A DNA stretch of 64,000 nt from NCBI GenBank assembly GCA_963714015.1, contig OY970223.1, positions 448,001 to 512,000 on the forward strand. Reading direction: 5' to 3'. A program made the position numbers and the translations under genes. Source of the stretch: Vulcanimicrobiota bacterium. Its GTDB lineage: Bacteria > Vulcanimicrobiota > Vulcanimicrobiia > Vulcanimicrobiales > Vulcanimicrobiaceae. A model generated the notes under the pieces. That model made no database searches. It was not told where the DNA came from and saw only the letters and a program-made list of their open reading frames with translations. This document shows positions 12,715 through 59,122 of the stretch, piece after piece. Position 1 is the first letter of the stretch. Each line of letters starts with the position of its first letter.

Positions 12715-15182
12715 GATGTGAAAAACGAACGCGGAAAGAACGCAGCTCGAACGGCTCGAGCGTAAATTGCAAGTACTCGCCTTCGATTTCGCACGGCGCC
12801 TCAACCGGCCGTTCGAGGGCGTCGACGGCTGCAGCTTCGGTCATTCTGGCGCCGCACCGCACGCCCGCCCGTATCGTGCGTCCGTCACACTCTCGCACGC
12901 GCACAATCACGCCGTCGCCATCGTGCGCAGGCTTGCACGCCGCAACGAGGACCGAACGATCCTCGCACGTGAAGAGCCGCACCCGCCGTTCGTGCGCAAA
13001 CGCTTCCCACATACGCTCCAAGTCGCCGTTGCCGGCGTCAACGAGCGGAGCAAACGCGTACGAGAACCGGTGTTCCCCCTTGTCGGCACGCGCATCGGGC
13101 CAGGTCGTACCCCGCAGCAACGAGTGCCCAAGGCGCATGCCGCCTTTGGGCAGCGCGCGCGCGCTCCAGCCGTAGGTGTCCAACGACAAGACCGCGACGC
13201 CGTTGCCCTCGCCGTCGCGTACGGCAGCGAAACGCTGTCCCGGCACCTCAAATTTCGCCTGCTCGGCCGGCGTTCGATTCCGGGCGCTGCGCGAAATGGT
13301 TCCGTGCGGTGACCCGTACGTCACGCTATCCGTGCCGATCGCAAGCCAATTCTCGACACGCAGCAGCTTTCTGCGCTCGGTCCAGTCCACTCGCAAATCG
13401 ATTCGAAGAAACGGTTCATCCCCGGCCAGGCTGACCTGCATCGTTGCCGGAGAGCGCCCGAACGTAAAATCTACAGCCAAAGCGCCGTTCTCCGGCCGCG
13501 CTCCAAGCGGCTTGGCGTTGCGCATGGTCTGCTCGTACCCGCGATCGATGTTCCACGCTTCCCATTGCTTCGGTTTATCGCGGTAGAGCGCGAGCACGTT
13601 AGCCTGACTGCAAAAACTGCTTCGCCCGCGCGCTGCAAGTTCGACGATGGATCCGCTGCGATTCACCACTGCGCGAATGAGGCCGTTATCGAAGACGTAG
13701 TCGCCGTCTTCTTGCTCGTGCGGCGCTACCGTACCGGGCTGCGCGTGATGCTGCGCGCGCGGGAGCATCGCCTGCGCGGCCGCAATGACGGAAGCGACGA
13801 TTTCCTCGGCCTGCGCGTATTCGGCGGCGACGTCATCGTAAACCGGCGTTATGGACGTCCCCGGCAGAACGTCGTGGAATTGATTGCGCAGAACGATCTC
13901 CCATGCCGCGTGCAAACCGTTTCGATATTGCGCGATTGCAGCCGCCGGAGCGTGTACGGCAGTGCACCACGCGAGCAGCTCTTCGGCTAATGCGAGGGAT
14001 CGTTCCAGCAGGGCGTTGTGAAACTTGACGTCGTGATGCGTCGTGTACACGCCGCGATGATACTCGAGGTAAAGTTCGTCGCGATGAACCGGCAGCGCCG
14101 CCCGGCGGGACGAAAGATCCCGGAACCACGTTACCGGATGAATCCACGATCCGATGCCGCGCGCCTGCTCGAGCATCTTTGAAGTGACGCCGCCGCCGCC
14201 GTCGCCATAACCGAGAACGATCGGTTCGCTGCGTTCGCGCGCGCGAATCAAGCGCCACGGATATGGTCCGCCGTCGTAGGACTGAATCAGCGCGGCGACT
14301 ACACCGCTGCCGTCGGGCCCTTCCCAAACGAACTGCGGGTACGGAAACTTCGTCGTGTCGTTCCACTGCAGCTTCGTCGTGGAGAAATAGGGAATCCGCG
14401 CATGCGCCAGCAGCTGAGGCAGCGTGTTCGCAAAGCCGAACGTATCCGGCAGCCACGCAATCTGCGGCGTCAAACCGAACCGGCGCCGGCAATATTCAGC
14501 GCCGTAGAGCATTTGGCGCACCAGCGACTCTCCCGAAGGCACGTTGCAGTCGCTCTCGACCCAAAGCGCGGCGACGCCGGGATCGAACCGTCCGGCTGCG
14601 ATGTGATCGCGCACGCGCGCATACAGCTGTGGGTCTTCCGCTTCGACGAAAGCGTAGAGCTGCGGCTGGCTTTGAATGAAGACGAATGACGGATCGCGAT
14701 CGAGCAGATCGCACGCAATCGCGAACGTGCGCTGCGCCTTACGCCGCGTCTGTTCATAAGTCCACAACCAGGCGACGTCCAAGTGGCTATGGCCCAGCAG
14801 CATGAAGCCGTTCTCGCCTTCCGCATGCGGATTGGAACTGCCGTCTATCGCGGCGTGCGTTACGGTGACCGTGCGCGACGGCTCTTGGTGAGCGCGCACG
14901 TTGAGGAACCACCAGATGAGGCCGGGTCCGGACGGAAGGCCGTTCGTCGGAAGCGCCTCGAGTTCGACGTCCAGCGCGAGTTCGCGAGCGCGCTCGCACG
15001 GCTGCACGACGACCTCATGATGCTCCCGGTCAAACGCGCCCGCGGCGACGCCGTCGACGCGCAGCAGCGCACCGGTCCAGGTCTTGTATTGTAGAGCAGC
15101 GGGCGCAGACTGCGGCGCGAGCGTTGCGGTCAGCGTCGCGATTCCATCCCGACGCCCGCTCTCGGTCAGACGCAGGCTGCAT
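12707..15182 (-). CDS. Alpha-mannosidase, glycoside hydrolase family 38 (1-base frameshift near 15175)
   Basis: HSHLDVAWLW, WLPDTFG, LYLEYHRG, NQFHDVLPG. The frame is open back to the uvrB stop; removing one base restores an ATG at 15182 (TGATG overlap). Confidence 0.88.
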
Positions 15183-17227
15183 CAGTTGCCGACGAGTTCC
15201 TTCAGCGCGTGCTCGAAGATCTTCGGAGCTTTCCCCTGGAAGAGCAGCGACTCGTTGCCGCCGATTTGTTTTCGAAGCTCGATGAGTTCGTCGCGCAGCG
15301 CGGCGGCCTTTTCGAACTCGAGACTGGCGGCGTACTCCCGCATCTTGCGATCGAGTTCTGCCGCCATCTTCATGGCGACGTCGCGCGGGAGCTTTTCACG
15401 CCGGATATCGCTGCGCGTTTCTTCGTTTGCGCCGACCATCGCGAGAATGTCCCGAACTTCCTTTCGCACGGATCGCGGCTCGATGCCGTGCTCCGTATTG
15501 TAAGCCACCTGGCGTTCACGCCGGCGCCGCGTCTCGCCGATGGCTCGTGCCATCGACTCCGTGACGACGTCGGCATACATGATGACTTTGCCCTCGACGT
15601 TGCGGGCCGCGCGTCCGATAGTCTGAATGAGCGACGTGCCGCTGCGCAGGTACCCTTCCTTGTCGGCGTCGAGAATGCCGACGAGCGATACTTCGGGCAG
15701 ATCGAGTCCTTCACGCAGTAAATTGATGCCCACGAGTACGTCGAATACCCCTAAACGCAAGTCGCGCAGAATCGCCACCCGTTCGAGCGTGTCGACCTCG
15801 CTGTGAAGATAGCGGACGCGGAAGTTCATTTCGATCAGAAAATCGGTGAGATCTTCGGCCATCTTTTTCGTGAGCGTCGTCACCAGTACGCGCTCCTTGC
15901 GCTCGACGCGCAAGCGGATCTCTTCCATCAGGTCGTCCACCTGATTGCGTGTGGGACGTACGTCGACTTCGGGATCCACCAGGCCCGTGGGCCGAATGAT
16001 CATTTCAACGACTTGAGTGCTGTGCGAGGTCTCGTACGTTCCGGGGGTTGCAGAAAGGTAGACGAACTGTTTGACGTGCTCCTCGAACTCTTCGTACGTG
16101 AGCGGACGATTGTCGAGCGCGCTGGGAAGACGGAAGCCGTGCTCCACAAGGGAGAGTTTGCGCGACCGGTCGCCGCCGTACATCGCGTGCACCTGCGGCA
16201 GCGTGGCGTGCGATTCGTCGATGAAGACGAGCCAATCTTCCGGAAAGAAGTCCAGCAGGCACCATGGCGTAGATCCGGGCTCGCGTCCCGTCAGGTGGCG
16301 CGAGTAGTTCTCGATCCCGTTGCAGTATCCGACCTCGCGCAGCATGTCCAGGTCGTATCGCGTGCGCATCTCCAGACGCTGCGCCTCCAGCAACTTGCCG
16401 TTTTCCTTGAAGTAGCGCAAGCGTTCCTCGAGCTCTTGCTCGATCGACTGCACCGCGCGCCGCAGCTTCTCGTCCGGCGTGATGAAGTGCTTGGCGGGAA
16501 AGATCATCAGATCGTCTTTGCTCTCGACGTATTCGCCGGTCATCAGATTGACGACGTTGATCGCGTCGACCGTGTCTCCGAAAAATTCGATGCGGTGAAC
16601 GAGCTCCTCGTCGACGCCCACGAATTCGAGCGTGTCGCCGCGAACGCGGAAAGTGCCGCGGACCAGGTTCAAATCGTTGCGGCGGTACTGCATGTCGACG
16701 AGCTTTCGGAGCAGCGCATCGCGCTCGATCTCGTCGCCGACCGAAATGCGCACCGACATCTCCACATAGTCCGAAGGCGATCCCAAACCGTAGATGCACG
16801 ACACCGACGCGACGATCAGCGTGTCGCGCCGCGTTATCAGCGACTGCGTCGCCGAGTGGCGAAGACGTTCGATCTCGTCATTGATGGAGCTGTCCTTCTC
16901 GATGTAGGTATCGGTGTGCGCGATGTACGCTTCGGGCTGATAATAGTCGAAGTAGGAGACGAAATACTCCACCGCGTTCTCGGGGAAGAACTCGCGGAAT
17001 TCGGCACAGAGCTGCGCTGCGAGCGTCTTATTGTGACACAGAACCAGGGTCGGCTTCTGAACCAGCTCGACCACACGAGCCATTGCCATCGTCTTGCCGC
17101 TGCCGGTGACGCCTAGGAGCGTCTGTGCTCGATCGCCGTTTTTGACGCCCTGTGCCAACGCGGCCGTGGCCTTGGGCTGGTCGCCGGCGAGTTGGAAGGG
17201 GCTGACGAGTTTGAACTTCTGGGCCAT
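15182..17227 (-). CDS. uvrB: Excinuclease ABC subunit B
   Basis: [22 protein letters not shown] beta-hairpin, [13 protein letters not shown]-terminal UVR domain. Confidence 0.98.
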
Positions 17228-17339
17228 CGCTACTCTGACATATCTTCCCGGAGTGGAGTTTCGCGGCTTGAGGGTAGGGTTGAGTCGCCGGGCGCGGGAA
17301 CTTCAAGCACCGCCCTGCCCGCATCCTGGAGACCGCCTT

Positions 17340-18362: not shown

Positions 18363-18382
18363 CGCTTCAAAAGGATAGCAAT

Positions 18383-19037
18383 GTGGCACAACAACTTTCA
18401 CTGTCCATCGAACGGCGCCCAGGCCGAGGCACGGCCAAGTCGCACGCGCTTCGCCGCACCGGAAAAGTTCCGGGCGTGGTCTACGGACACGGCTCGAGCG
18501 AGACGATCGCGGTCGAGCGGCGCGCGCTGGATGAGCTTCTGCATCACGGCGGACGGACCGGTCTGGTCGAGCTCCGCTTGGACGGAAAGAAGTTCGACAC
18601 CGCGCTCGTTCGTGAGATTCAGATCGATCCGGTTTCGCGCAAGGCGATCCACGTCGACCTTCAGCGCGTCGGAGCCAACGAAACCGTGCACGCCAAACTG
18701 CCCATCACCACAGCCGGCACTCCCGACGGCGTCCGCAACTTTGCCGGCGTCATGGACGTGATCGTGCACGAGCTCGACGTGGAAGGTCCGGCAAACAAGC
18801 TTCCGGACCATCTCGAGGTCGACGTCACCGAGCTGGGGATTCACGAACACGTTACGGCGGGCGAGGTCAAGCTGCCCGACGGATTCAAACTGCTCACGGC
18901 GCCCGACACGATCGTCGTCACGGTGGAATCCTCTAAGACGGCGCGCGCGCTCGAAGAGGCCGACCTGGGTGCTTCGATCGAGCAGACGCAGCCCGAACTC
19001 GTCGGCAAACCGGAGAGTGAAGGAGCTGCAGGAATAA
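18383..19037 (+). CDS. rplY: 50S ribosomal protein L25/Ctc (as written, in frame with pth)
   Basis: LRRTGKVPGVVYG, IHVDLQRV, LPDHLEVDVTEL, acidic tail; follows prs. Confidence 0.9.
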
Positions 19038-22928: not shown

Positions 22929-22971
22929 GCTCGTTATAGCACTGCGCCGGACGTTTTTGTAACGAGGAGCG

Positions 22972-23023: not shown

Positions 23024-23702
23024 ATGCAAGGATTCGCCGGAAAGGCATTCGTGGTACGCGTCGACGAGGCAACCGCCTTCGCCGAGCAGACCACGCTGGT
23101 CGATGACCTGACCTACCTGGCCCGGCGCAACGTCCATCCGATCGTCGTGGCCCCCTCCCGCCGCGCGAGCCGGTCCCTCGTGCGCACGATCAACCGCAGC
23201 GGCAACATGGCCGTGGGACTTTCCGGAGCGGACGCGGCAATGCTTCCCGGAACCGGCAACGGGATCGGTAACGTGCAGATCGGTATTCTTCAAACCCTCA
23301 CCGGAGCCGGATACATTCCGGTGATCGAACCCACGGCGTTCTCCGCGTTCGGCGAACACGACCGAGCCGTGGCGGCGGATGAAGTCGCTCGCGCCGTCGC
23401 CGCTGCTACGGATGCGGTACGCGCGATGTTTTTTCACGCGCTCGGCGGCGTCGTCGACCCGCAGAGCGAAGCCGTGATCAGCGAATTGACGCCGGCCGAA
23501 GCGCTGGCGATCGCGGACGATCCCCGCGTGCCGCGCGATCTGCGTGCGGCGATACGGGCGGCTGCGTTAGGCGTGCGCGCGGGCGTCCAGAGCGCACAGA
23601 TCGTCGACGGCAGAATCAGCTCACGCGACGGTGGTCGAACTTCTGACGGCGCACCATCTGGGCACCAGAGTGACCGGCAGCGTCTTTACCGGTGCCGCGT
23701 AG
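23024..23702 (+). CDS. Degenerate acetylglutamate kinase (ArgB/AAK-fold) homolog; frameshift near 23618
   Basis: AVGLSGADA, GYIPVIEP. Corrected C-terminus DGRIAHATVVELLTAHHLGT, stop at 23702. KxGG and HGGG motifs absent. Confidence 0.8.
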
Positions 23703-24914: not shown

Positions 24915-26031
24915 CTACTGCGCTGAGTCGTCGTACACCGCGAAGCCACCGCCGCAAGCCGGAAATGAAACCCTGTCGCGCCCCGACCTTTTGCTGTGAT
25001 ACATCGCGGCATCGGCGACTTCGAGCAATTCATTCGCCGTGAGGGCGTCGCTCGGATACGCCGCAATTCCGACGCTCGCGCTGATCGGCAGATCGACGCC
25101 GAAGTCGAAAGTGCGGACCGCTCGGCAAAAGCGCTGCGCGCGTTCGATACAGGCGATTTTCTGCACGTTGTGCAGGATCGCGCAGAATTCATCTCCGCCG
25201 TTGCGCGCGGCGATGTCGATCGCGGGAATCGCATGCAGCCGAAGGAGCGCCGCCATACGTTGAAGCACCATGTCGCCGGCGGCGTGACCGTACGTGTCGT
25301 TGACGCGCTTGAAGTGATCGGTGTCCACGAACCATAACGCCAGGGCGACGTTTCCGCTGATCCGTGCTGCGGCGATCTCTTCCTGCAGTTTGTCTCGAAA
25401 GGCACGGGGCGTATACAGTCCGGTCAGCGCGTCGTAGGTCGCGTTTGCCCGATCGGATTCCCGCTCGGCTGCAAGTGCATACGGGGCGGCTGCTTGTGCG
25501 ACGGTGCTGACGACCGAATCGGCGTTTCGAAACTCGTCCGCAGCGGAAGACACGTAGACTACGGCGGATAACCGATCTCCGCAGGACATGGGAATGGCCA
25601 AAGCGGCGCGGTCGGTGGGAATCAACGGTCTGCCTTCTGCAACCAGTTCTACGCGATGCCCGCAGATTGCAGCACGGGACGGCAGTGCCGCCGCGTCGTC
25701 CCTGCGCAAGCGCAACGTTGCAAAATGTTCGCTGCGCGGGCCGGCTGCATGCACGCAGCGCAGACTCTTCGGCCTCGGGAGCAAACACCAGCACCGCGTC
25801 GATTGACGGATCGAGCACCTTGAGCGTGCGTTCGAGCGCCGTAAGCACGGCCTTAGTCGAATCGCGCGAGGCCGCGGTGACGACACGCACCGCTTCAAGC
25901 AATTGCGACTGCCGGCGGGATGCGTCGTCCAGCGCGCCGCGGGAAGCCTCGGCTTGGCGCTTCATCGTCGCGGCGTAGGCGCCGAAGCACAAACAGAGAA
26001 CCGCCAGGAAAGCCAGACCGGCCGCGTACAC
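24915..26031 (-). CDS. Membrane-anchored GAF-GGDEF diguanylate cyclase; frameshift at 25764
   Basis: N-terminal TM, GAF-like LAIPM...AVVYV, DALTGL, DTDHFKRVNDTYGHAAGD, RNGGDEF. Confidence 0.88.
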
Positions 26032-26040
26032 AGGAGGTAA

Positions 26041-27336: not shown

Positions 27337-28766
27337 CTGGGAGAGCTTCCGCGCGCAAGCGCACGAAGCGCTGGACGAGGCGATCGACTATCTTCGGGGC
27401 GTGCGCGAGCGCCCGGTCTGGCAAGCGGTCCCGGACGCGGTCAAAGCGGCCTTCGATCTGCCCTTGCCTGCGCAGGGCGCCCCGTTCGCCGACGTTTACC
27501 GCGAGTTCGCGCAAACGATTCTTCCGTACCCCACGGGAAACATCCATCCGCGCTTCTGGGGCTGGGTGCACGGATCCGGTACGCCGAGCGGCGCCATCGC
27601 CGACATGCTGGCCGCGTTCATGAATTCAAACGTCGGCGGCCGCGATCACGGAGCTGTCTACGTCGAGCGTCAAGTCGTCGCGTGGTTTCGCGATCTTTAC
27701 GGCTGGCCGAAGAGCTCCAGCGGAATACTCGTAACGGGTACCTCCGCCGCAAATCTCATCGCGATCCTTGCGGCGCGCACGAACGCGCTCGGCCATGCCG
27801 CCCGGGAACAGGGTCTGGATCAGCGCGGCGAGGGAGCGTTGATCGGCTATGCATCCGCTGCGACGCACGCTTGCGTCCGCAAGGCATTCGAGATTGCCGG
27901 GTTGGGCGCCGCGAACTTGCGCGTGCTCCCCATTGACGCCGAACATCGAATCGACACGCAGACCGTTCGCGAAGCAATCGCTGCCGATCGCGCGGCCGGA
28001 AAACGTCCGTTTTTGATCGTCGGAAATGCGGGAACGGTCGACGTGGGTGCCGTCGATCCGCTCGCGGATCTCGCCGAACTCGCCGATCTCGAAAACGTGT
28101 GGTTTCACGTGGACGGCGCTTTCGGCGCTACGGCGTATCTCTCGGAGCGCTTGCGGCCCAAGCTGCGTGGAATCGAACGGGCCGATTCCTTGGCTTTCGA
28201 CTTTCATAAGTGGCTGCACGTGCCGTACGACGCCGCATGCGTTTTGGTACGAGAGGCAGAGACGCATCGCGCGGCGTTCGCCGGCGAAGGCCCGTACATC
28301 ACCCGCATGACGCGCGGCCTTGCGGCCGGAGACTCCTTGGTTTGCCGATTATGGGCCGGATCTCTCGCGCGGTTTTCGCGCTCTCAAGGTGTGGTTCGCC
28401 GTAAAGGAATTCGGTGCAGCCGGCCTTGCGGCAGCGATCGAACGCAACTGCGATCAGGCACGGCTTCTCCAGTCGCTGATTGAAGCGGACGAGTTCTTCG
28501 AACTGGTCGCCCCGGTCGAACTGCAGATCGTCTGCTTTCGCCCGCGGCGGCCTCACCTTTCCGCCGAGCAGATCGACCGGCTTACGGACGAGAGCGTGAT
28601 CCGGCTGCAAGAGAGCGGCATCGCGGTCATCTCGTCGACGACCATCTTCGGACGGCGCGCCATGCGCGCATGCATCACGAATCATCGTACGCGGGACGAG
28701 GATCTTCCCATGCTCCTGAATGCCCTGCGGGAGTCGATGCGGGAAGCTGAAGAAGCCCTGACGTAG
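27314..28766 (+). CDS. PLP-dependent group II amino-acid decarboxylase; frameshift near 28332
   Basis: HPRFWGW, WFHVDGAFG, SLAFDFHKWLHVP (PLP Lys); continues in the next frame as LSRGFRALKVWF. Confidence 0.9.
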
Positions 28767-28774: not shown

Positions 28775-31325
28775 ATGCGGTCGCGCATTACCGAACGGCT
28801 CAGGCGGGCTGCCCGTTTTCCGGTCACATTAATCGTCGCTCCCGCCGGTTTCGGGAAAAGCGTCGCGTTGCGAGATTTTTTGGAAGAGTCCGGCCTCGAA
28901 GCAGTCCGCTGCAACGCGCGGCGCGAGGACGGGACGCTGCTTGCGTTCGTCCGCAGTCTGAGCGAAGCGCTCGAACGGGTCGCTCCCAGCGCGCTCGCAT
29001 CCTATCCTTCGGTTCAGCAGCGCGTTCTGGGGTCGGAAGAGCCCGTGCGGCAATTGGCCGATTGGTTCGCAGAGCATTTGAAAACTGTTTCGTGCACGAT
29101 TGCCATCGACGATCTGCATTTTGCGTCCGTGGACCCCGCCTCTATCGCCCTGCTCGCTGATCTGATCGAACGCACGAGCGAACATCTCAAATGGATCATC
29201 GCGGCGCGCTCGGACGTGGGGTTGCCGGTCGGAACCTGGATTGCGTATGGGCGCATGGACATCGCCGTGGGCGAGGAGGAACTGCGTTTTACGACCGGCG
29301 AGGCTCTTGCCGTGGCCGGGGAATCCGGCTCCGAAATCGATCCTCAGGAAGTGGAAGCGCTGCGCCAGCTCACCGAAGGGTGGCCCGTTGCCCTGACCAT
29401 CGCGTTGCGCACCCGTACGCACGCTCACGATTTGCGAACTGCATCGTTCGGAACTCGCGAGATGGTTTACCGGTACCTCGCCGAGCAGGTTTTCGCCGCA
29501 TTGACGTTGCCGCAGCGCGCATTCGCGCTCTCGACGAGCGTATTCTCGGCATTCGACACGTCCGTAACACGAGCGCTCGGCGCGACGCCGGAGTTCGTTT
29601 CGGAAATTCGCCGCAAAGTGACTTTTCTGCAGGAAACCGAACCGGGCCGCTACCGCTATCACGATTTGTTCCGCGACTTTCTGGAAACGGAGCTCCGGCG
29701 CTCGGGCGAAGGTGAATGGGTGCGCGCAGTTTGCGAAGGCGCTGCCGCACTCGGCCGATCGGGACAAGAGCCTGCCGCACTGCTCCTCTTCGCGAAAGCA
29801 CGCTCGGCGGAAGGCATCGTTTCGATCGTCGACCGCTCGGGCTTCAATCTCTTCGAGAGCGGTGAAGCCGATACGCTCGCAACGGCGCTCGAAGCGTTGC
29901 CGGACGAGGTGCGCCGCACCAATCCGAGCGCACTCGGCTTGAGCGCGATGCTCGAGTCCGGACGGGGACATTTTGAAATTGCGGAGCGAGACTTCAAAGA
30001 AGCGATCGGGCTCGCAGCGGATCCGCATCTTCGCGCGGAACTGGTGCTGCGCTACGCCATAGAGATGGTTCGTCAAGACCGCGACTGCACGCCGCTGCTC
30101 GAACCGTATGCCGGCGCATCCGAGCTCTCACCGGAAGAACAGGCGCCGTTGCTCGCTACGCTGGCGACGGCATATGCGCGCGCCCGCCGCACAGCGGATG
30201 CCGTCAACACCATCCAGCGCGCTCTGGAGATTTTGCCGGCCCGCGCTAACGAAACCGTTCGCGCCCGGATCTACCATCAAGCCGCGTACGTCCATCAGTT
30301 CGTCCACGATCCGGATAAGACGGAGCGCTATGCATCACTGGCAGTCGAAATTGCGCTGCGGCGCAACCTTTACGAGCTGGCGGCGCGGGCGTACAGCATT
30401 CTGTACGCCATACGCTACGAAGCCGACGATCCGCTGGGCAGTCTGACCATTCTCGATCGCCTCGTGGAGTCTGCGCGTAAAGCCGCGTCCAATCAGGCGC
30501 GCCTCTTTGCGTTGATGGCGTCGTATGAAATCCAAGTCGAACGCGGCGACGAAGGAGCGCTGGACGAGCTGGACGGCTCGCTGCAAGAGACCCGCACGAC
30601 CTTTACGCTGGCGCGCGCGGAGGCGCTCGTTCCGGCGCTGGCGATGCGCACGGCGTGGTCCGGTGATTTTCGGGCCGCTTACGAGCTCTGCGCGGGGAAC
30701 GTGCAACAGCAATCTACGGCAGAGCGTCGCGCGCTGCTCTCCGCTCAAGCCAGCTTCTACGCTTTGGCCAGCGGACTCCAAAACGAAGGCGAAGACGCCT
30801 ACCGTGAAGCGGCGTCGGCGCTCGAGCGTACGGGGAAACCGAGCCTGCGGGCGACGCTGACACGCGTATTCTTGGCGCTGGCCGACTTGATTCGCGGGCA
30901 TCACGCCGCGGCGCACCGCCTCCTCACGGACGCCGAAGAAGTGACGGCATGGCCGCGGCCGAGGGCATTTGCGCATGCCGTTCGCATTCTGTACCGAGTG
31001 CATTTGGGGCAAGCCGATGCCGCTGCACTCGAAGTCTCACTCGAACGCTTGAGAACCGCGCAATTCGGCGGCGCCGCGCGTCTTATCGCGGCACTTCCGC
31101 TGCCTCAGAGCAAAGGGGGCGGCTACATGCAGCTCTACGCCCGCCGAGCGCGAGATTCTGGAGCTGCTGTCCGCAGGAGCGAGCACCAAAGAGATTGCGA
31201 ATCGGACCGCCCGCAGCGCCCACACCGTAGACACCCATATACGTGCGATTTGCCGCAAGCTGCAGTGCAGCGGCCGGCGAGAAGCGGTAGCGTTAGCCGT
31301 AGGGGCGGGCTGGGTACATAGGTAG
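28775..31325 (+). CDS. MalT-like STAND ATPase-TPR-LuxR transcriptional regulator; frameshift near 31135
   Basis: APAGFGKS, IDDLH, TEGWP, YRYHDLFRDFL. Corrected C-terminus LTPAEREILELLSAGASTKEIA...TVDTHIRAICRKL is a LuxR HTH. Confidence 0.9.
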
Positions 31326-31367: not shown

Positions 31368-32559
31368 GTGGAATTCGGATTTCGGCGCACGTGGCTGTTA
31401 GCCGGCTGCACGCTCTTGGCGGCTTGCAGTGTGTCGAATTTGCCGGCGTTGCAGCAGACTGAACGAGCCTCGCAAGGCACGGGCAGCGGACTTCCGGCAA
31501 ACGGCGCCAGCGGTTTGCCCGCGAACGGCGCAAGCGGCATGCCGGCGGGCGACAACCTTAGCCTGCAATCTGCTCGATACGCCCGGTCAGGTAGACTGCA
31601 CCATCGCAATCAATCTCAACGTTCAGCCGAACGGCAATCCGAATACTCCGGGCGGCCTGCTTCCGGGATACCATCCTGCGGATCTTCAGGCGGCATACGC
31701 GTTGCCTTCACAACTCAAAGGCGGAACGGTCGCAATCGTGGACGCATACGACGACCCGCTAGCCGAAATCGATTTGGCGGTGTACCGCGCTACGTTCGAC
31801 CTGCCGGCATGCACGACGTCGAACGGATGCTTCAAACGCGTCAACGAAGAGGGCGGCACGAAAAGCTACCCGTTGCCGAACCTGCAATGGCAGCAAGAGA
31901 TCTCGCTCGACATGGACATGGTTTCGGCCATCTGTCCCAACTGCAGCATTCTGCTGGTCGAAGCGAACACGCCGAGCATCCAGGATCTCGGCACGTCGGT
32001 CGATACGGCGGTTCAAATGGGCGCGCAGGCCGTCAGCAACAGCTACTACGCGCAAGAGTATCGAGGCGAGCTGAAAGCCGACAAGTATTACCACCATCCG
32101 GGTGCCGCAATCGTCGTCAGTTCCGGCGATCAACCCGCGTCGTACTATCCTGCCGCCTCACCGTTCGTAACAGCTGTCGGCGGCACGACGCTTAACCTCG
32201 CGAACGGTCGCAGCGAAAAAGCTTGGGCGCCCGCCGGACACGGCTGCAGCGTCTACGAACCGAAGCCCAACTGGCAAGGCTGGACCGGCTGTGCGTCGCG
32301 TTCGTCCGTCGACGTTTCGGCCGTTGCCGATCCGCAAACCGGTGTTGCATTCTGGGATACGACGTCCGGCGGCTGGCTCGTAGCCGGCGGTACCAGCATC
32401 GCGTCGCCCATCGTGGCTGCCGCCTATGCGCTCTCAGCGAATCCCGAAGGACCGGGGTATTCTTATTCGCATCGCAGCGGGTTCAACGAGATTCCGCCCG
32501 GTACGCGATATACGCTCGCCACGGGTCTGGGCTCGCCGAACGGCGTCACCGGATTCTAG
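31368..32559 (+). CDS. S53 (sedolisin-like) lipoprotein peptidase; frameshift near 31562
   Basis: Lipobox LAAC; EISLD, SNSY, SSGD, GGTS, GLGSPNG. Confidence 0.85.
31488..31547 (+). repeat. 2.5 copies of a 24-bp coding repeat (GLPANGAS)
   Basis: Translation GLPANGAS GLPANGAS GMPA in the linker after the lipobox. Confidence 0.75.
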
Positions 32560-36227: not shown

Positions 36228-37675
36228 TTAGTGCAGCGCCTCCAGCGCTGCCCGCAAACGGCGCAGCGATTCCACTTTTCCTAGCATCTCCATGCCGTCG
36301 AAGAGCGGCAACGAGGTCGGGCTACCGGTAATGGCGATGTAAAACAACCGCGCTACATCCTTGAATTTTACGGTTCCGTCGGCTTGCGCAACACCGCTTT
36401 TGAGGCGTTCGCCTATGGAAGACTGTTTCCAGGACCCGCTTTCGAGCGAGATTAGCGACTCGATCGCGCCGTCCAGCACTTGCTTGGCTCGATCCTCCGG
36501 AACTTTCGGCAGCGCGAGATCGCGCCGGCCGACCTCGGGAGCCTGCGCCAGAAACTCGATCATCGGAGCGACGCCGGCGAGCGTTTCGATGCGCGGCGCG
36601 ACGATGGCAGCGATACGCTCCCGCTGCTCCGCCGGTATCGCGCTGGGCCAAACAAAACCCCATTCCGCCAGAACGCTCAAGAACTCGACGGCAGAAAGAC
36701 GCCGAATCCACTGGCCGTTGAGCCAGTTCAGCTTCGACAAATCGAAAACCGGACCGCCGAGCGCGATGCGAGTCAGTTCGAAGCCGCGCGCCATCCCAAG
36801 GACCAGCGCCGACGGTCCCTCGCACTCGAGCAAATCGGGATTGTCGTTGCGCGAATCGATGAGCACTCCCAAGAAATTGAGCAGCGCTTCCGCCAAGTAT
36901 CCGCGTTCGCGGTAGTAAAGAATGCTCGTGGGGTTCTTGCGTTTGCTGAGCTTGCTCTTGTCCGGATTGCGCAGAAGCGGCAAATGGCAGAGCTGGGGGC
37001 TTCCCACCCGAAGTACCGATAGAGCAAAATGTGCTTTGGCGCGGAGCTGATCCATTCTTCGCCGCGAATCACGTGCGTGATCCCCATCAGATGATCGTCG
37101 ACGACGTTGGCCAGATGGTAGGTCGGGAAGCCGTCGGACTTCATCAGCACCTGCATGTCGACGCTTTTCCATTCGATCTCGATTCGCCCGCGGAGCAAGT
37201 CGGTAAAGACGCAGGTACCCTCTTGCGGCACTTTCATCCGAACAACTCCCGCAAGCCCGGCCTTCTGATTCGCGGAAACCTGTTCGGCGTTGAGTTGCAA
37301 GCAGTTGCCGTCGTAATGCGGCGGCTGCTTAGCGAGCCGCTGATTCTCGCGCATCTCTTCCAACCGCTCGGGCGTGCAGAAGCACCAAAAAGCGTCGCCT
37401 TGCGCGAGCAATCGATCGACGTGCTCGCGGTAAATCGCCGATCGCTCGCTTTGCCTGACCGGCTCACCGCTCCACTCTAGGCCGAGCCACTGCAGCGAGC
37501 GTAGAATCGCGCTCTCGGACTCCGCCGTGCTGCGCGCCCGATCCGTATCCTCGATTCGAAGCACGAACTCGCCGCCCTGACTCTTCGCAAAGCAAAGATT
37601 CACGAGCGCGACGTACGCAGTGCCTACGTGCGGATCGCCGGTCGGCGACGGCGCTACTCTGGTTCTGACACTCAA
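36228..37675 (-). CDS. gltX: Glutamate--tRNA ligase; 1-base deletion near 36995
   Basis: [11 protein letters not shown] (HIGH), [15 protein letters not shown]; second frame has KLSKR (KMSKS) and the anticodon domain. Confidence 0.93.
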
Positions 37676-43813: not shown

Positions 43814-44436
43814 AGTCGGGCCACATGATGGGCAGCGTGACGAACTCGGTGTACGCGACCTGGTAGAGCAGAAAATTCGATAGACGGTACTCTCCGCCGG
43901 TGCGGATCAGCAGTTCCGGATCGCCGGCGTGCGCTGCGTACATCCGGCTGCGCAGCAGCGTGTCGTCGACGTCCTCCGGTCGAAGCTTGCCGGCGGCGGC
44001 CTCACACGCGATGGCGCGAGCGGCGCGCACGATGTCGTCGCGGCCGCTGTAATTGAGCGCAAGATTCAGCGTCAGCCGGCGATTCGTTTGGGTCGCGCGA
44101 ACGAGATGTTTCAAAGCTGCGCGGACCGGAAGCGCGAATGCGCGGGAATCGCCCAACACCTGAACGCGCACTCCTAACTTCATTAAATTCGCGCGCTCGT
44201 TGTGCGCAAAGAACGCGCAAAGTCTGCATCAGCAGCGTTACCTCGGAGGGCTCGCGGTTCCAATTCTCAGTCGAGAACCCGAAGACGGTCAGCGTCTCTA
44301 TGCCGGCTTCGAGCGCTCCGCGCACCGCCTCGCGCAGTGCGCCGATTCCGCGGCGGTACCCTTCGGCGATAGGGAGACCGCGCGCGGCAGCCCAGCGCCG
44401 GTTCCCATCCATGATGATTGCTACGTGCCCCGGCAT
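43746..44436 (-). CDS. uppS: Isoprenyl (undecaprenyl) diphosphate synthase; frameshift at 44223
   Basis: HVAIIMDGNRRW, FSTENWNR; second frame has NYSGR, IRTGGEYRLSNFLLYQ, ERRYG. Confidence 0.9.
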
Positions 44437-49219: not shown

Positions 49220-50747
49220 TGCAGACGCTTTCTCGCAACACGATGAACGCCGCGCCGGCGCAGTTCGAAATCCAACGCGATCTGCCGCCCGGCTTTGCTC
49301 AGTTTTACCGGCCGCTGCACGAAGCGTTTGCTGCGCGAGCGCGAGAGCTCGTGGAGGAACGCCGTCACGTCTTGGCGCGAGCGCACGAAGGCGTGCTGCC
49401 GGCGTACTTGGGCGCCGACAAAGGACGCCCGACCGATTGGCGGATCGCTCTGCCCCACTGGTGCCGGGATCAGCGCAATCAGATGACCGGCCCAGCGGAC
49501 GACGCCGAGCTGGTCGTCAAAATGCTGAACTCCGGCGCACCGGGAGTCATGCTCGATCTCGAAGATTCCATGGCCAACACGTGGGATCACCTGGTGCAGG
49601 GACATCGCAATATCGTCGAGGCGCTGTACGGAACGCTCTCGTACTTTGACGCAAAACGAGATGCGCGGATCGGTATAAAGCCTAGCGCAACGGTGATTTG
49701 GAACCGCGTGCGCGGGCTGCACCTCTCTCAAGCCGGAATTTTAGAAGAAACGACTCCCGCGCCGCTATTCGACGTTGCGCTTCTGGCGCACACGATCGAC
49801 CTCGATCGACTGCCGGAAAGAACGCTTTGCCTCTACATTCCGAAATCCGAATCGGCTCAGGAGGCGTTGTGGTGGAGCGATCTCTTCAATGCCGTCATCG
49901 CGGCGAAACGGTGGCCGGCGCAAGCGATCAAATGCATGGCTCTTGTGGAAGCGCATCCCCTGGCGTACCAGCTCGAAGAGTTCACCTTCAATCTGCGCAA
50001 GTATCTCGTCGGGCTGAATTTGGGACGCTGGGACTACATGGCAAGCTTGATTCACTATACGCTCGCCGATCCGGAATGGCTTCTGCCGGATCGGAACACG
50101 ATTCCGGTCGACGTTCCGTTTTTTCAGCGCTTGCGCGCGCTGATACCGGAAGTTTGTCATCGGCACGGCATGCTCGCCATCGGCGGAATGACCGCGCTGT
50201 ATCCCAGCCGTGAAGATCCGGACCTCAACGCTCGAGCCCTTGACGTATTGGCGCGCGACAAGAAAAACGAGGCGGATTGTTTGATGGACGGCGCGTGGAC
50301 CGGGCATCCCGATCAGAATCAGATTGCGGTCGCCCAATTTCCATATCCTAATCAGCTCGCATGCCGGCCGGCGTTCGTCGATCCCAACGCTGATTTGCGC
50401 CCGAAACCGGTTGACGTAGGAACCAAGAGCCTCGGCGGCACGCGTGCTGCAATTCGCACGGTTATCCGGTACCGCGCAGGAGTTCTGAGCGGCAAAGGCG
50501 CCAGTTTGCTGGACGGCTACATGGAAGACCTGGCTACGGACCGCATCTATAGGCTAATGATCGCGCAGCGCATGCGTCATCCCGGAGGTTATACGCCGGA
50601 CTCGCTGAGCGTAAGCTTCGATACCGAGCTGCAGCGAATTCTGAGCGAGTTCCGGCGGGCGCAGGAGACGACGAGCGCGAGCGCTTCAAACGGGCGCGCG
50701 AACTTTCGGAGCAGATGATTCTGCTCGGGGACTTCGACCCGGTTTAA
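49219..50747 (+). CDS. aceB: Malate synthase (A-like); 1-base deletion near 50650
   Basis: TGP, DLEDS, YIPK, GLNLGRWDY, AIGGM, DGAWTGHP, MEDLAT. Corrected tail ends FKRARELSEQMILLGDFDPV. Confidence 0.88.
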
Positions 50748-50764
50748 GGCTGCGTTAATCGTTG

Positions 50765-50827: not shown

Positions 50828-50828
50828 C

Positions 50829-53412
50829 ATGCGATCCATACTGATCGCCGCACGCGCTTTGGCAATGACCGCTCTGGTTTTCGCTGTCGCGTCGGCCAGT
50901 GGTTTGGCACAAACCCCGAGTCCGGCCGGCGGTTCGGGCAGTATCACCGGAACGGTGACCAATGGAGTCAGCCAAGGACCGGTCGCCAACGCAACGGTGG
51001 AATTGGTCGGCACGGCTGTGGATAAAACGGCGCATTCGGACGCGTCGGGCAATTTTTCGTTCGACGGTTTGGCGGCCGGGTCGTACTCGCTCAAAACTAC
51101 GGCGCACGGATACACGCAGAGTACATCCGCGCCGTTCAGCGTCGGCGTGAACGAACAGGTCTCGCTGGCAGTCGCCCTGCAGCCCGTGAGCGGCGCCGAA
51201 CTGCGCACGATCAGACTCCGTCCGCGTCAACGGCAAGCAATCCGTGAACACGACCAGCACGCCCACCGTAACGATTACAAACCGGCAATTCGTCCAGGCC
51301 GGTCAGGTGCTGGTCGAGCAAGCGCTCGAGCAGACGCCCGGCGTGACGCTCGAGCATTACGACGGCGGACTGGGATCCGTCGCGACCGTTTCGATTCGCG
51401 GCGCCGGCGGCTTTATGCAGGGAAACAACACGGGCTACGAAGTGCTCGTGCTGCAGGACGGCGAGCCGATGCGCAACGGACAGTACGGCGACGCCGACCT
51501 CTCGACGCTGACCCCGTCGATTTACTCTCGCGTCGAAGTGCTCAAGGGCGTCGGCGGCACGTCGCTGTTCGGTGCCAATACGATCGGCGGCACCGTCAAT
51601 CTCGTCACGCGCGACCCGCTCGCCACCGAAGGCGGCCAATTCATCGGCGGCCTGGGCGGATTCGGCACGTTTCACTACGACCTGGTCGAAACAAATACGA
51701 TCGGAAAATTCGGCTATATTTTCGACCTGCACCGGCTGGGTACCGACGGCCCGGTTCCCGGCAGTTTCATCGCCGACTACGTGACGAATACGTACAACAA
51801 CAACAATACGGGCTGCACGACCGCGGCGACCTGCGGACCATTCTGGCATCCGACGCAGTCCTTCGCACTCGAGAGCGATCTCATCAAACTGAAATATCAG
51901 TTCTCTCCGGCCACCTTCCTGACGCTCAGCCAGCAAGGTGAGAGCGACATGCGCGATCAGATCGGCCTGCTGACGAATCCCACGAACGCCTACGGCGGGA
52001 ACGGCAACTACTTCGATCCGCTCGGCTATCCGTATTACTACGGTTTCCCCGGCGACCAACTCTGGAATATTGAACCAAAGATCGGCGCGGATCTCCACAC
52101 GCAAGCCGGCGGCGGCGATCTGATGCTTCGGTCGTACGGCGGCATCTTGGAACGCGTCGACGACGGCAACGGCGAACCCGCCGCAATTTGCTGTTACCTT
52201 CAACGTTCGATCGACCGGCTCTATGGCGACGAAGCGTACTGGACGAAGCTGTTCGGCAACCATACCGTGACCCTGGCGGCGGGAGGAAACGGCGACAGCT
52301 ACTTCTACGGTTCGACCGGGTCGAGCGACACGCCGCTCAATTTCGGCGACATCAATTTGACGAACGGCAAGCAGATCGAACGCACCTACATGGCGCGTGA
52401 CGACTGGCAAATGAATCCGCGCCTCGACATGAATCTGACGGGTTACTACAGCACCTACGACACGCTTCAGGTCAAGCGTTTCGATCCCCGATTGGGTTTA
52501 GTCTATCGGCCCGATCTCTCGACGGCCGTGCGCTTCTCCGCCGCCAGCGGCTTTGCGCCGCCGCGCCTTTCGGACTTGTATAATCCGCTCGACACCTACG
52601 CGGGCGACGCGCTCGCCGACGTGCGCTGTCCGTACAAAGACGGCGTCTACAACGGCTACTGCGTCGCAACGTCCGGCAACCCCAACATCAAGTCCGAGAC
52701 GGCAGTGGGATTCGATTTAGGCGTCGATCACACATTCGGTTTCGCGAACCGCGGTTTGGTCAGTCTGGATCTCTATCGCACCAACTTGAACGACCACATC
52801 TTCTACGTCGACGTGCCTGCGCCGGCCGGGACGGGAAACTTTACCGGCCACGCAAGCCAAGGCGGAAACCCGATTCTCTACGTTCAGGAGCCGATCAATC
52901 TGGCGCATGCGGTGTACGCGGGATTTGAATTCAACGGAGTCCTTCCGGTAACGCACAACTTCTCGCTGACCGGCCTCTACACGACCCAGGCGGCGTATCC
53001 GACGGGCGTCGACCTCGTTACCGAACAGAACGCCGGCGACGTCGTCAACAATCAGCAGTTCCTGGGCGTTCCGGTACACCAGGCGAGCTACGGCCTTCGG
53101 TACGACAACAATGCGGGGGCGTCGGCGTTCTTCCGCGGCGACGACTACATGCAGAACAACGCCTACGATCTGCCGCAGTTTTGGCTCTACAGCGCCGGAA
53201 TCACGGAACCAATGCCGAGCGACAATTCCCTGACCTTCGCCTGGCAGAATATCTTCAACAAAAACTCCCTGATTTTCTCGCAATTCAACGGCGGCGTGCC
53301 GTATCCGGGCGCAAGTCCCTACGGGCCGCTCGGCGAGACTGCTCATCCGGTTAATCCGCATTACATCATGGTCACGTTCACTCACAGTTGGGGTTCGCTG
53401 AGGAACCCCTAG
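50829..53412 (+). CDS. TonB-dependent receptor with N-terminal carboxypeptidase-regulatory-like domain; frameshift near 51215
   Basis: Signal peptide, GSITGTV..SDASGNFSF, plug (LEQTPGV, SIRG, RVEVLKG..SLFG.NTIGGTVNLVT), DPRLGLVY, GNPNIKSE, NIFNK. Confidence 0.9.
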
Positions 53413-53436
53413 CCCCTGAGCGTCCGCCAAGACCCC

Positions 53437-53467
53437 GGCGCCCCGCCCAACCGGCGGGGCGTCCCGT
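53437..53467 (+). terminator. GC-rich hairpin after the receptor gene
   Basis: GGCGCCCCGCC-CAACC-GGCGGGGCGTC; weak U-tract. Confidence 0.45.
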
Positions 53468-53519
53468 TTATCCCCGTAGCGTTGACGGCCGCCGCCGCAA
53501 AGCGTTATCACCTTTTAAG

Positions 53520-54609
53520 ATGAAACGCCTCTCCCCGCAGCGGCTTCGTTGGATTCTAGCCGTGATAGCGATCTACAGCGTCGTAGCGGTCTTGATGTTC
53601 GGCTACCATTACCTGAACGACGTCGCCAACGGAACGACGAGCACGTGGGAACGCCGTCTGATCGAAGAGACTACCGGCGTCTACACGGTGTGCCTGCTGG
53701 TTCCGTGGATCGTGTGGGTCGCTCGGCGTTTTCCGCCCAGGCGCTGCCATTGGGCAAGTGTAGTTGCGGCATGGCTTGGCGGCACGATAGTTTTCACGAT
53801 CGCCCACACCACGCTGATGGCGCTCAGCCGCATCGCGATCTACCACGGCTTAGGGCTCGGCCCGTATGACTACGGCATCATGCTTTACCGCTATCCCATG
53901 GAAGCTTCGAACGACGTCCTTTCCTTCGTGGTAGTAGCGGCAATCGTCACGTTCCTAGACCGCCTCCAGGCAGCCCGCGCAGCCGAACTCCACGCCGCGG
54001 AACTTCAGGCGAAGCTGGCCGAGGCGAAGCTCGAGAATTTGCGGCTGCAGCTGCATCCGCATTTTCTTTTCAATACCCTCAATGCAATCTCGACCGTTAT
54101 GTACGAGGACGTGCGAAAGGCCGACGCCATGCTGGCTAAGCTCAGCGACTTCATGCGCATGGTGCTCGCCTCGAGCGACGTGCAGCAGGTCAGCATCGAA
54201 GAAGAGCTCGGCGTCGAGCGAATGTACGTCGATATCATGACCGAGCGGCTCGAACGTCGCCTCACCCTGAGCGTTTCCGTCGAAGGAAGCGCGAGGGAAG
54301 CGTCGGTTCCGTTCATGCTGCTCCAGCCGCTGCTCGAGAATAGCATCCGGCACGGAATGCAGCTCGGCCGGCGACTCGCTCGATCTGCGAATCGACGTGC
54401 GCCGTTCGAACGGTTCAACCGTAATTTGCGTCTCCGACGACGGACGAGGCATCGTACCGGGAACTCCGCGCGGCATCGGTTTGAACAACGTCGAGTCGCG
54501 TCTGAAATACATGTACGGGAGCAGCGCATCCGTCGCTCTCGAACGGCGTAAGTCGGGCGGTACGCAGGCAACGATCGTTTACCCGTATTTGAAAGCTTCG
54601 AAGACGTGA
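53520..54609 (+). CDS. LytS/YehU-family sensor histidine kinase; frameshift near 54362
   Basis: 4 TM helices, QLHPHFLFNTLN, LQPLLENSIRHG; next frame has DDGRG, GIGLNNV, GGT. Confidence 0.9.
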
Positions 54610-55357
54610 GACTGCCTGTATTGGTTGCCGACGACGAAGCACCGGCGCGCCGCAAACTCGCGCGCTTCCTCGGCGCGCATGCCGACGTGGAGATCGTGGG
54701 GGAAGCTTCCAACGGTATCGATGCGGTAGACCTCATCGCGATGACCAAACCGAAGCTTGTCTTTCTCGACATACAGATGCCGGATTTGGACGGCCTCGGA
54801 GTCGCCGAGACCATCGTGCGCCTCGAGCAGCCGCCGTCGATCGTTTTCGTGACCGCTTTCGATCAGTACGCGGTGAAAGCGTTCGAGGTGAGCGCGCTCG
54901 ACTATCTGCTCAAACCGTACGACCGCGAACGTTTCGATCGCACGCTCGACCGCGCACGCACTTCGCGCGAACCCTTCCCGACGCCGGCCGCATTGCCGAG
55001 ACGCTGGCGCAGCTTCGCAACGAGGATCGCTACGTTCGTCGTCTCCTCATACCGAATGAGGGACGCTCGTTCTTCGTTGCAGTGCGCGAGGTTTTGCGCC
55101 TGGAATCACAAGGGAACAACGTGATGGTGCATAGCCGGCGCGGCCTCCACCAGCTTCGCTCGACGCTGGAATCGATCGAAACGCGGCTGGATCCGGCGCT
55201 CTTCGCCCGCGTGCACCGCTCCCATTTGGTGAACATCGACGAAATCGAAGAGATCCGCCCTTGGTTCCATGGCGATTACAAATTGCTCATGCGTGACGGC
55301 ACCGAAATCGCGTGGAGCCGCCGCTTTGCGGCAAAACGTTCGGATTTATTGAAGTGA
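54606..55357 (+). CDS. LytTR-family response regulator; 1-base deletion near 54960-54978
   Basis: ADDE, FLDIQMP, FVTAFDQYA, DYLLKP; next frame has FARVHRSHLVN. Confidence 0.92.
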
Positions 55358-56881
55358 CTGCCCAAGACCGTCCTCGAGGCGAGCAGTTGACGCCGTGGAT
55401 CGCAGCGGCGGCCGTCTTCGCGATCCACGCCGCAGGAAATCCTCACTATGGTTTTTTCCGCGACGAGCTCTACTTCATCATCTGCGGATTCCATCCGCAA
55501 TTCGGCTACGTCGATCAGCCTCCGGTCGTGCCGCTGCTCTCCGCGGGAACGCAGACTCTTCGGCCATTCGCTCTTCCTGCTTAGGCTACTACCGGCGCTC
55601 TTCGCAGCGGCAGGCGTCTACACGACGTGCCTGCTGGCGCTCGAATTCGGCGGCGGCGTCTTTGCGCAGCTTCTCTCTGCGGTTGTGTTTTTCTTCACGA
55701 CCGTGCTGATGAGTTTCGGCATGAAGGTCTCGACGGATACCGTCGGACTCTTCACCTGGCCTCTGCTCGCGTTGATACTGGTACGCATCGCCAAGGGAGC
55801 CGACCAGCGGCTCTGGCTGCTCGGCGGCGTCATCGCGGGCATTACGATAGAGAGCAAATACAGCGTGCTCTTCCTTATTGTCGCGCTCATAATCGGCTTG
55901 CTGCTGACGGCCGAGCGGCGTATTCTTTTCAATCGCTGGTGCGCGGCAGGAGCCGGCATTGCCGTACTCATAGCACTCCCCAACTTCCTCTGGCAGTGGC
56001 GCTTCGGCTTCCCGATGATCGAGCTGTTGAAGGCGGGGCAAAACGGAAAAAATCTCGTTGCCGGACCGCTGCTTTTTTTGGCCCAGCAGCTGATCATTAC
56101 GAACCTCTTCGTCTGGCCCGAGTGGGTGATTGGTTTCATCTGGCTGCTCGCCGCGACGCGCTTCCGCTTCTTGGGAATTGCCTACGCCGTGCTCATCGCC
56201 GAAATGATCGTGTTTCACGGTAAGCACTACTATCCGGCCGACGTTTATCCGACCCTCATCGCGGCCGGCGCCGTTCCAATCGAGCGCTGGACGCGCACAA
56301 GTAGAATTGCGCGCGGCGTCGTGGTCGCGTACGCAACCGTCTTCGGCATCGTCTTCCTTCCGTTCGCGCTGCCGGTACTCTCCGAAAGGACGTTCGTCGC
56401 ATACCAAAATCAAGTCGGAAGGGCCCTACATATTTCGAGATCGGCAACCGCAACGGAAGCCGGCCGTGAAACCGCAGCACTACCCGGCGATTGGGCCGAT
56501 ATGCACGGCTGGCGCCGGATGGCCGCAGCCGTCAAACGCGTGTACGACGATCTACCGCCGCCGCAGCGCGAACGCGCCGTCGTTTTTGCCGGCAACTATG
56601 GTGAAGCCGCCGCCGTAGAATTCTTCGATCCCGGAATTCCCGTGATCAGCGAGCACAATCAATACTATCTCTGGGGAACTCGCGGCTACGACGGCAGCGT
56701 TCTGGTGCAGATCAACGGCTCGTGTTTTCACTCCGACGGGTACTTCAGGTCCCGGACGCTTGCCGCCCGGCTGAACGATCCTTGGGCAATCTCGTACGAA
56801 GCGAACGCTCCGATTTGGGTCTGCCGCGGGATCAGAAAGCCGCTGCCGGAGATATGGCCGGCAATCAAGCTGTACGAATAA
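55354..56881 (+). CDS. Glycosyltransferase family 39 (ArnT/PMT-like); frameshift at 55555
   Basis: FFRDELYF, GYVDQPP, multiple TM helices, SKYS, PNFLWQ, NYGEAAA. Confidence 0.85.
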
Positions 56882-58276: not shown

Positions 58277-59122
58277 TGGTCGATCAGTTCTACGACTACC
58301 GGCGCTACCCGCCCGGCCACGGAGCGATAGCGCATGGGCTCGATAATGTCGTGTGCGAACGGCAGATCGGTGAAGCGGTGAACCCGAACCGCTCCCGGCT
58401 TGTGTTTAGACCACTGCTGAATGAGCTGCGAAATGGCGCTGTTGCTCACCGCCGGCTCCCGTGAATTCATTACGACTACAAGCTCCTCGGCTTTAGGTTG
58501 CTCACGGTACGCCGCTTGGAGCAGCTCGTGTGCGATGGTCAGACTGTGGCCTATTGCATGCGATGCGTAGCGCGGATAGCCGTGGGCGGGCTGTTGCCTC
58601 TCGCGCAGAAAGGGATCCCACCACAAAAAGCGGTTGCGGCGCCGCAGCACCCACTTGGCCAAATGCATCCGCAGTGCGTTCGGGACGAACGCGACGCCCA
58701 TGAACGGCGTAACTGCCACCACCCGGTGCAAGCGATGAAATTGACCCAAGTGCGCCGCCAGAAGGCCGCCCAGTGAGAAGCCTGCTACGCAGACCTCTTC
58801 TCCCAGCCCTTGCGCGATCTCGAGCGAGTCGAACGCGCACGCCTTCAGTCTGTCTCGCATTCAGCCGTGCAAGGGCGTCCGAAAGCCGGTCGCTGTATCC
58901 GTGGCGAGGCAAACGCGGAACGAAGACGTTGTGTCCGCGCTCGTACAGCGCCCGCGCGATCGCAACGAACTGATATGGGCTGGCGGAGAGACCGTGAAAG
59001 AGCACGGCGGCGCGTTGCGTCCGGCGGCCGTGATCGAACACAAGCGTGCGCCCCAGTTCGCCGATGCCGCTATGGTCCCGGCGCAAAAAGCGCTCTAGGC
59101 GCTCTTCAGCCTTTTCGTACAT
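58273..59122 (-). CDS. Alpha/beta hydrolase paralog; frameshift at 58849
   Basis: FHGLSASP, PRLPRHG; next frame has GFSLGG, FLWWDP, EPAV, HDII. Confidence 0.82.

Follow-up and report, generated by a model that had tools for sequence, protein, structure and literature searches.

Frameshifts at AGCT in a single-contig genome of Ca. Baltobacteraceae suggest sequence errors at a methylated palindrome

AGCT-associated frameshifts in a 64-kb window

We analyzed a window of 64 000 nt (G000:C1:448001-512000) from a bacterial genome assembled into one contig (G000; 3.56 Mb, completeness 89.6%, contamination 0.06%), in which genes are interrupted by one-base frameshifts in or near the palindrome AGCT. 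Judging by how the close homologues of one of its proteins are named, this genome belongs to Ca. Baltobacteraceae, for which we take Eremiobacterota to be the phylum name. A sequence-only reading of the window had described 14 such frameshifts, all of them at AGCT, and had proposed that the organism methylates this word and that the affected genes are not pseudogenes. Our main comparison genome, G001, belongs to the same genus and consists of 60 contigs. All 14 motifs were found at the positions given in that reading, and all 14 sites show a net gain or loss of one base when compared with the corresponding DNA of G001 or of other relatives. For a null rate of about 6%, the chance of 14 out of 14 is about 5e-18. 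The caution that many AGCT words read normally was equally justified: the window holds 196 intact copies, so that the majority of sites are read correctly.

To place the changes, every possible one-base edit was scored at 13 sites (all but 15174), against one reference each. The AGCT-consistent edit scored best at four of them. These are the extra base of AG[A/T]CT at 25762..25766 (- strand) in a GGDEF diguanylate cyclase gene, that of AG[T/A]CT at 44221..44225 (- strand) in uppS, that of AG[A]CT at 51213..51217 (+ strand) in a TonB-dependent receptor gene, where this placement is also unique, and the missing base of AG-T at 50648..50651 (+ strand) in the malate synthase gene; G001 reads AGCT at both the uppS and the receptor site. 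At six further sites (23618, 31131, 36991, 54960, 55553 and 58847) the AGCT-consistent edit lay no more than 4 score units below the best. Here we find an extra base immediately 5' of AGCT at 23617..23621 (+ strand; -2 units) in an argB-like amino-acid kinase gene and one immediately 3' of it at 31131..31136 (+ strand; -2) in a MalT-like regulator gene, a missing base adjoining AGCT at 36991..36995 (- strand; -4) in gltX and another, A-CT, at 54960..54963 (+ strand; -1) in a LytTR-type response regulator gene, as well as extra bases in AG[A]CT at 55553..55557 (+ strand; -2) in a PMT_2 membrane glycosyltransferase gene and in AG[T/A]CT at 58847..58851 (- strand; -2) in an alpha/beta hydrolase gene. 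NCBIfam matches of the unbroken orthologues in G001 bear out the names gltX and uppS. The remaining three scored sites carry extra bases in AGACT at 28330..28334 (+ strand; top placement 28333-28334) in a PLP-dependent decarboxylase gene, in AGCCT at 31558..31564 (+ strand; top placement 31558-31560) in a subtilase (S8) gene, and near AGCT at 54361..54371 (+ strand) in a LytS-type histidine kinase gene; this last site is the weakest of the set, its top placement (54370-54371) lying 6 nt past AGCT. At 15174..15178 (- strand) the extra base of AG[G/C]CT falls in the third codon of a gene that follows uvrB and encodes a glycoside hydrolase-like protein of 824 aa (mannosylglycerate hydrolase match). 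The DNA alignment is unclear at this site, which was judged by the N-terminus of the G001 orthologue (V/M-R-L-R-L, compared with M-Q-L-R-L once the central base is removed).

A 15th site had been overlooked. At 19024..19028 (+ strand) an extra base gives AGCT[G] within the open reading frame (ORF) 18383-19615, whose 410-aa product is an in-frame fusion of rplY (L25/TL5), its stop lost, to pth. G001 has two genes here, and six aligned relatives keep rplY ends of the GAATAG/GAATAA type. The rplY tail is variable, and the fusion is probably false and due to the extra base at 19024. Further gene-model calls in the window (3062, 7011, 12009, 12742, 20448, 21355, 22415, 24929, 27313, 41754, 49217, 55310, 57754 and 58278) were dropped because they lie at or near gene boundaries or within an uninterrupted G001 match; at 24929, 57754 and 58278 the G001 match covers one side only.

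Genome-wide occurrence of AGCT-linked frameshifts

For a genome-wide count we used the 1818 genes called in a 2.19-Mb portion of G001 (about 3.7 Mb in total), 1198 of which have an orthologue in G000. They yielded 220 frame-switch candidates, and the 210 that were scored reduce to 207 distinct events, with 169 insertions as against 38 deletions. Among the 136 four-mers AGCT ranked first in all five settings. If the edit may score up to 4 units below the best and lie up to 1 nt away, 94 of the 207 frameshifts are linked to AGCT (12.0 expected); under the strictest rule there are 35 (2.6 expected), and with a looser distance of 3 nt 104. The association with AGCT that the sequence-only reading had noticed in one window is found across the genome. 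Its statement that all frameshifts sit at AGCT holds within the window but not beyond it, since genome-wide about half are not AGCT-linked.

The events affect 2.8% of the AGCT sites in the 1.2 Mb covered. This fraction is a lower bound, as only 8 of the 14 sites in the window were picked up by the pipeline; with 9297 AGCT sites in the genome, about 260 events or more are to be expected. A reference-free gene model gave a similar excess, with AGCT or AGNCT within 22 nt of 182 out of 437 non-junction insertions (36 expected). The 94 AGCT-linked events comprise 32 of the form AG[A/T]CT, 17 AGCT[C], 15 AGCT[G], 9 AG[G/C]CT, 13 deletions and 8 others. They are evenly spread over the genome (chi2 49, df 56, p 0.72), whereas the other 103 frameshifts are patchy (chi2 133). 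We infer from this pattern a constant per-site error at AGCT, superposed on locally poor consensus; the window would be free of other frameshifts because it lies outside their patches. Such patches occur in bins 700-800, 950-1050, 2200-2250, 2400-2500 and 3450-3500 kb, and findings there call for extra caution.

No convincing second motif was found among the 103 frameshifts without AGCT (best CAGG, 23 versus 13.6 expected, z 2.9, with many four-mers tested), and GATC, GTAC, CCGG, GCGC, GGCC and TCGA are not enriched at frameshifts. AGCT does not cluster at the dnaA/origin region or in intergenic DNA. Its densest 400-bp windows hold eight copies and are coding; its observed-to-expected ratio (O/E) is 0.69 in intergenic DNA and 0.80 in the whole genome. 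We rejected this depletion as a sign of methylation, as the ratio is 0.97 alike in the fetched parts of a relative with the candidate methyltransferase gene described below (G017) and of one without it (G006).

A candidate AGCT methyltransferase and its distribution

A search of G000 for a methyltransferase that could act on AGCT, such as the sequence-only reading had envisaged for a cytosine enzyme, found a beta-class candidate, P0001, and did not favor one of the C5 type. P0001 (G000:C1:1044674-1045633, 319 aa) is intact and lies outside the window. It matches PF01555 with 123 bits over residues 24-241 and the PADLOC model PDLC03296 with 419 bits over its full length. Its DPPY motif (30-33) precedes DFFAGGG (near 209-215), i.e. 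the order of (D/S)PPY ahead of FxG that is typical of the beta class. Within 1.5 kb we found no restriction enzyme, the neighbors being read from translation rather than scanned against families; they are a sensor-kinase-like gene, which runs divergently and shows synteny in five relatives, and, on the opposite strand, a 297-aa ORF without annotation. The closest solved structure by sequence is CcrM (6pbd, E 9e-22), while the protein remains far under the CcrM cut-off (99 versus 830). In a phage collection the best match reached an uninformative 32%, and a cluster look-up of 10 distant homologues returned no specificity names.

P0001 orthologues (62-76% identity) allowed us to look for the same error signature elsewhere. 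We examined few-contig carriers, reading contexts by eye and dropping rows due to the rplY-pth fusion of G000. For G007, G008, G011, G013, G015 and G016 the comparison covered 5-12 kb per genome or nothing. The AGCT signature is present in 10 of 12 insertions (G017 5/5, G007 2/3, G008 1/1, G013 2/3) and absent from three deletions in these relatives. G007 and G017 show it without a match to PF00145, the C5 family, at a completeness of 92-93%, and in G017 the P0001 orthologue is the only match to PF01555. The P0001 gene is itself broken beside AGCT, its presumed target, in G007 and G013 (L144:2245 and L145:2070).

Within the phylum P0001 occurs in 26 of 301 genomes, all of them in its own family f1 (including the unpublished G325). 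It is largely kept by whole genera or absent from them (g30 7/7, g28 3/3, g1 2/2 and g7 2/2, as against 0/59 in g27 and 0/19 in g25). A Dam-family enzyme (TIGR00571 above cut-off) was found in 32 of the 301 genomes, namely in 21 of the 26 P0001 carriers and in 11 of the 275 others, while genus g28 has P0001 but no Dam match; as kin are not independent, we regard these counts as a pattern and not as a test.

Outside the phylum, proteins of Methanoculleus, Methanoregula, Methanofollis and Methanohalophilus match P0001 over its full length with 56-60% identity; a named scan gave 80 loci, many of them from these genera, with full-length identities of 52-61%. A full-length match is present in 32 of 81 Methanomicrobiales genomes. 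In Methanohalophilus a homologue occurs in 6 of 11 genomes and is the sole PF01555 match over cut-off in five of the six carriers. A shorter homologue (about 250 aa, 43-50%) occurs in 18 of the 81 Methanomicrobiales genomes, and since the full-length form is listed for none of these 18, one form may stand in for the other.

Several of these genera have published AGCT methyltransferases. HG16 is an orphan m4C AGCT group, found in Methanoculleus (6/6) and Methanoregula/Methanospirillum (6/6) (PMC10609329); HG11 and HG19 are orphan m4C AGCT methyltransferases of Nitrososphaerota, and M.NspBD3I is counted among the persistent orphan m4C AGCT enzymes of archaea (PMC10609329, PMC11033074, PMC6329791). 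M.MhuIV (PMC11033074) and M.Mma5219II of Methanohalophilus mahii (PMC11033074, PMC6329791) are likewise given as m4C AGCT enzymes. AGCT methylation has been detected by nanopore sequencing in Methanospirillum (PMC10689673) and by SMRT sequencing in Thaumarchaeota (PMC8919816). Because homologues of P0001 sit in genera with published m4C AGCT groups, we assign it this putative specificity. P0001 is favored as the writer in G000 because G017 bears the signature, has no C5 match and retains the P0001 orthologue as its only PF01555 protein.

Sequence errors or real mutations

The frameshifts of the window are almost certainly artefacts of the assembly. Contigs of 284-412 bp from an independent sequencing run (X1), which may be the source sample, show 0-2 differences to the window, and one of them (depth 3.3) lacks base 51215 and thereby restores AGCT in the TonB-dependent receptor gene. 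In addition, dnaA (broken at ATCAGCTGAG), gltX and both uppS copies are among the genes broken in G000, and these genes are essential. Together with the AGCT enrichment, the missing base in X1 and the broken essential genes bear out the claim that we are dealing with errors and not with pseudogenes. Judging by their N-termini, genes that presumably correspond to dnaB, valS, carB and mutS are also broken. The low completeness (89.6%) despite a single contig by itself suggests frameshift errors. Runs X2 and X3 gave only pieces of other organisms and were not used. Another X1 contig, 96% identical, has one extra base behind 47919, between the ribosome-binding site and the start of the isocitrate lyase gene. 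We did not count it as an error, given its position and the 10 further differences of the contig; it is probably a strain difference.

We propose that in the cell the stand-alone beta-class enzyme P0001 would methylate both strands of the AGCT palindrome, the product most likely being AG(m4C)T. If the assembly was made from long reads of native DNA, presumably nanopore reads, the modified base would distort the signal, so that at a few percent of AGCT words a single base would be inserted (the usual case) or dropped in the consensus, within the word or next to it, AG[A/T]CT and AGCT[G/C] being the typical outcomes; the affected genes would be intact in the cell. That AGCT is modified and that this causes the errors we hold to be very probable, and the explanation as a whole, with P0001 as an orphan m4C enzyme, to be likely.

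Several points weigh against this explanation. The modified base, its chemical nature, its writer and the nanopore origin of the reads are all deduced. Out of the 207 frameshifts 103 lack an AGCT explanation, and the AGCT repair fits poorly at three of the 13 scored window sites (28330, -5; 31560, -7; 54361, -10). The modification-linked errors of PMC11610603 are mainly C>T and G>A substitutions, but those of G000 are indels, and substitutions at AGCT show no excess here (1006 versus 1147). Among the matches listed, run X1 corrects one of 15 window sites, by one contig of low depth and unrecorded platform. The control genome G006, which has no orthologue of P0001 and no frameshift in 73.8 kb with 230 AGCT, is a weak one (probability 0.066 at the G017 rate, platform unrecorded). 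A Dam-family enzyme is common to the signature-bearing relatives, so that co-occurrence alone does not single out P0001. Finally, the link to the characterized AGCT enzymes is one of genus-level distribution rather than of direct alignment to a named enzyme, and the four Methanoculleus genomes tested have a second beta-class family in common as well.

Could the frameshifts be true scars? AluI cuts AGCT bluntly, and an AluI-like nuclease cutting at AG^CT, followed by Ku/LigD rejoining with a non-templated extra base, would leave real pseudogenes. In fact, the commonest change is an extra base exactly at the AG^CT center (41 of 94), Ku is present in G000, and in M. smegmatis blunt breaks receive single non-templated bases from LigD-POL (PMC4176160). 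However, hundreds of fixed scars would have to take in dnaA, gltX and both uppS copies, base 51215 is absent from run X1, and 32 of the 94 events are insertions outside the word (AGCT[G/C]), which do not fit a central cut; moreover, the many-contig gene carriers G002, G003 and G009 show no such breaks in the 28 kb covered. We therefore consider scars extremely improbable. A context error of the base-caller or polisher, without any modification, would account for the fact that only a few percent of AGCT words are affected, and the modification itself is deduced. Yet AGCT contains no homopolymer, the other four-base palindromes tested are not enriched, and the single-contig genome G006, which lacks the gene, has no event at 230 AGCT where about six are expected at the G000 rate (p 0.0016, G006 platform unrecorded). 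This makes a pure context error very unlikely.

A modified AGCT could also have another writer, as G000 encodes two PF00145 (C5), three PF01555 and one full PF02086 (Dam-family) gene. The C5 gene at G000:2073430 adjoins a Type II restriction enzyme, which together with the under-representation of AGCT would suit a restriction-modification pair. However, G017 and G007 bear the signature without a PF00145 match, none of G001, G007, G008, G013 and G017 yielded the partner restriction enzyme, the look-alikes of this enzyme belong to HaeIII/MspI/HinP1I-type clusters (a lead only), and the depletion does not track the gene. The AluI-type C5 modifier suggested by the sequence-only reading is thus not supported, although its broader claim of AGCT methylation names the likely cause; the modifier is probably not AluI-like. 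The Dam-family gene at G000:17290, in turn, is shared by G007, G008 and G017. Its product scores above the TIGR00571 cut-off and has retained the segment GLCRxNxxGxFNVPFGRY of E. coli Dam, which points to GATC, and GATC is not enriched at frameshifts (31 versus 24.7); G013 bears the signature but has no match to PF02086, at a completeness of only 72%. The family to which this protein belongs and the absence of GATC errors thus speak against Dam. Any writer other than P0001, be it one of these two or another beta-class or C5 gene, appears unlikely to us.

Comparison with known systems and implications

Systematic motif-bound errors linked to modification are known to persist in long-read assemblies and serve to find methylated motifs (PMC11610603, PMC11649196). 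The errors of G000 share these properties. They differ in being one-base indels, found by orthologue comparison without reads, from the substitutions of PMC11610603, whose available text does not mention AGCT. Within the literature searched, which did not extend to subscription journals, REBASE and bioRxiv supplements, we found no account of AGCT methylation in Eremiobacterota and none of nanopore indels linked to AGCT. The archaeal orphan m4C AGCT enzymes resemble P0001 in being of the beta class (PF01555), without a nearby restriction partner, kept through whole genera and accompanied by a Dam-like GATC enzyme. In contrast to them, P0001 has a bacterial host and a motif deduced from errors instead of kinetic or signal data. 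AluI is a restriction-modification system with m5C in AGCT; it shares the word with P0001, but its methyltransferase is of the C5 type and comes with a restriction enzyme, whereas P0001 is an amino-methyltransferase without one. Dam and CcrM (PMC4752239) are orphan and conserved across a clade, as is P0001. A role in origin timing like that described there finds no support in G000, where AGCT does not cluster at the dnaA region.

Orphan GATC and AGCT marks are paired in Methanomicrobiales and Nitrososphaerota, where a shared epigenetic role is suspected (PMC10609329). The co-occurrence of P0001 with a Dam-family enzyme repeats this pattern, so far described in two archaeal groups, and we tentatively suggest that a subclade of Ca. 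Baltobacteraceae may keep an m6A GATC and m4C AGCT orphan pair in the same way, a possibility we hold to be slightly doubtful. If true, this would be a bacterial case of the pairing, with an AGCT enzyme more alike across domains (56-60%) than usual. Mapping frameshifts against relatives would then suffice to reveal enzyme activity in public long-read assemblies, and the errors would show, at no extra cost, which motif an uncultured lineage methylates and point to one enzyme. Modification-linked nanopore error is already known; what is new, and modest, is the enzyme assignment and the pairing with Dam in one bacterial subclade. On this explanation several hundred genes of G000 and of related long-read genomes would be falsely broken or, like the rplY-pth ORF, fused. 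Claims of pseudogenes, gene fusion or gene loss drawn from this assembly are therefore unsafe.

Other methyltransferase loci

The Dam-family adenine methyltransferase gene (G000:C1:17290-18147; G001 orthologue L057:10851-11714) looks orphan and lies amid housekeeping genes. The intact HTH-fused C5 methyltransferase gene (L011:354-3576, G000 about 2072280-2075500) stands with a convergent Type II restriction enzyme gene and a controller-like HTH gene, and the same trio is also found on plasmids of Caulobacter sp. and Desulfohalobium. A second restriction-modification pair, in a low-GC stretch, lies at L075:1447-2789 (G000 about 429670-431010). Its SPPY-type methyltransferase gene is split at GAGGAGGCTG, and the downstream gene, with a weak REase_II match, is split as well; the pair looks BglII/BstYI-like. 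AGATCT is under-represented in G000 (O/E 0.75). A phage-like stretch (L012 and L074, G000 about 2677000-2684400) carries a partial C5 methyltransferase gene and an orphan-type N6/N4 methyltransferase gene.

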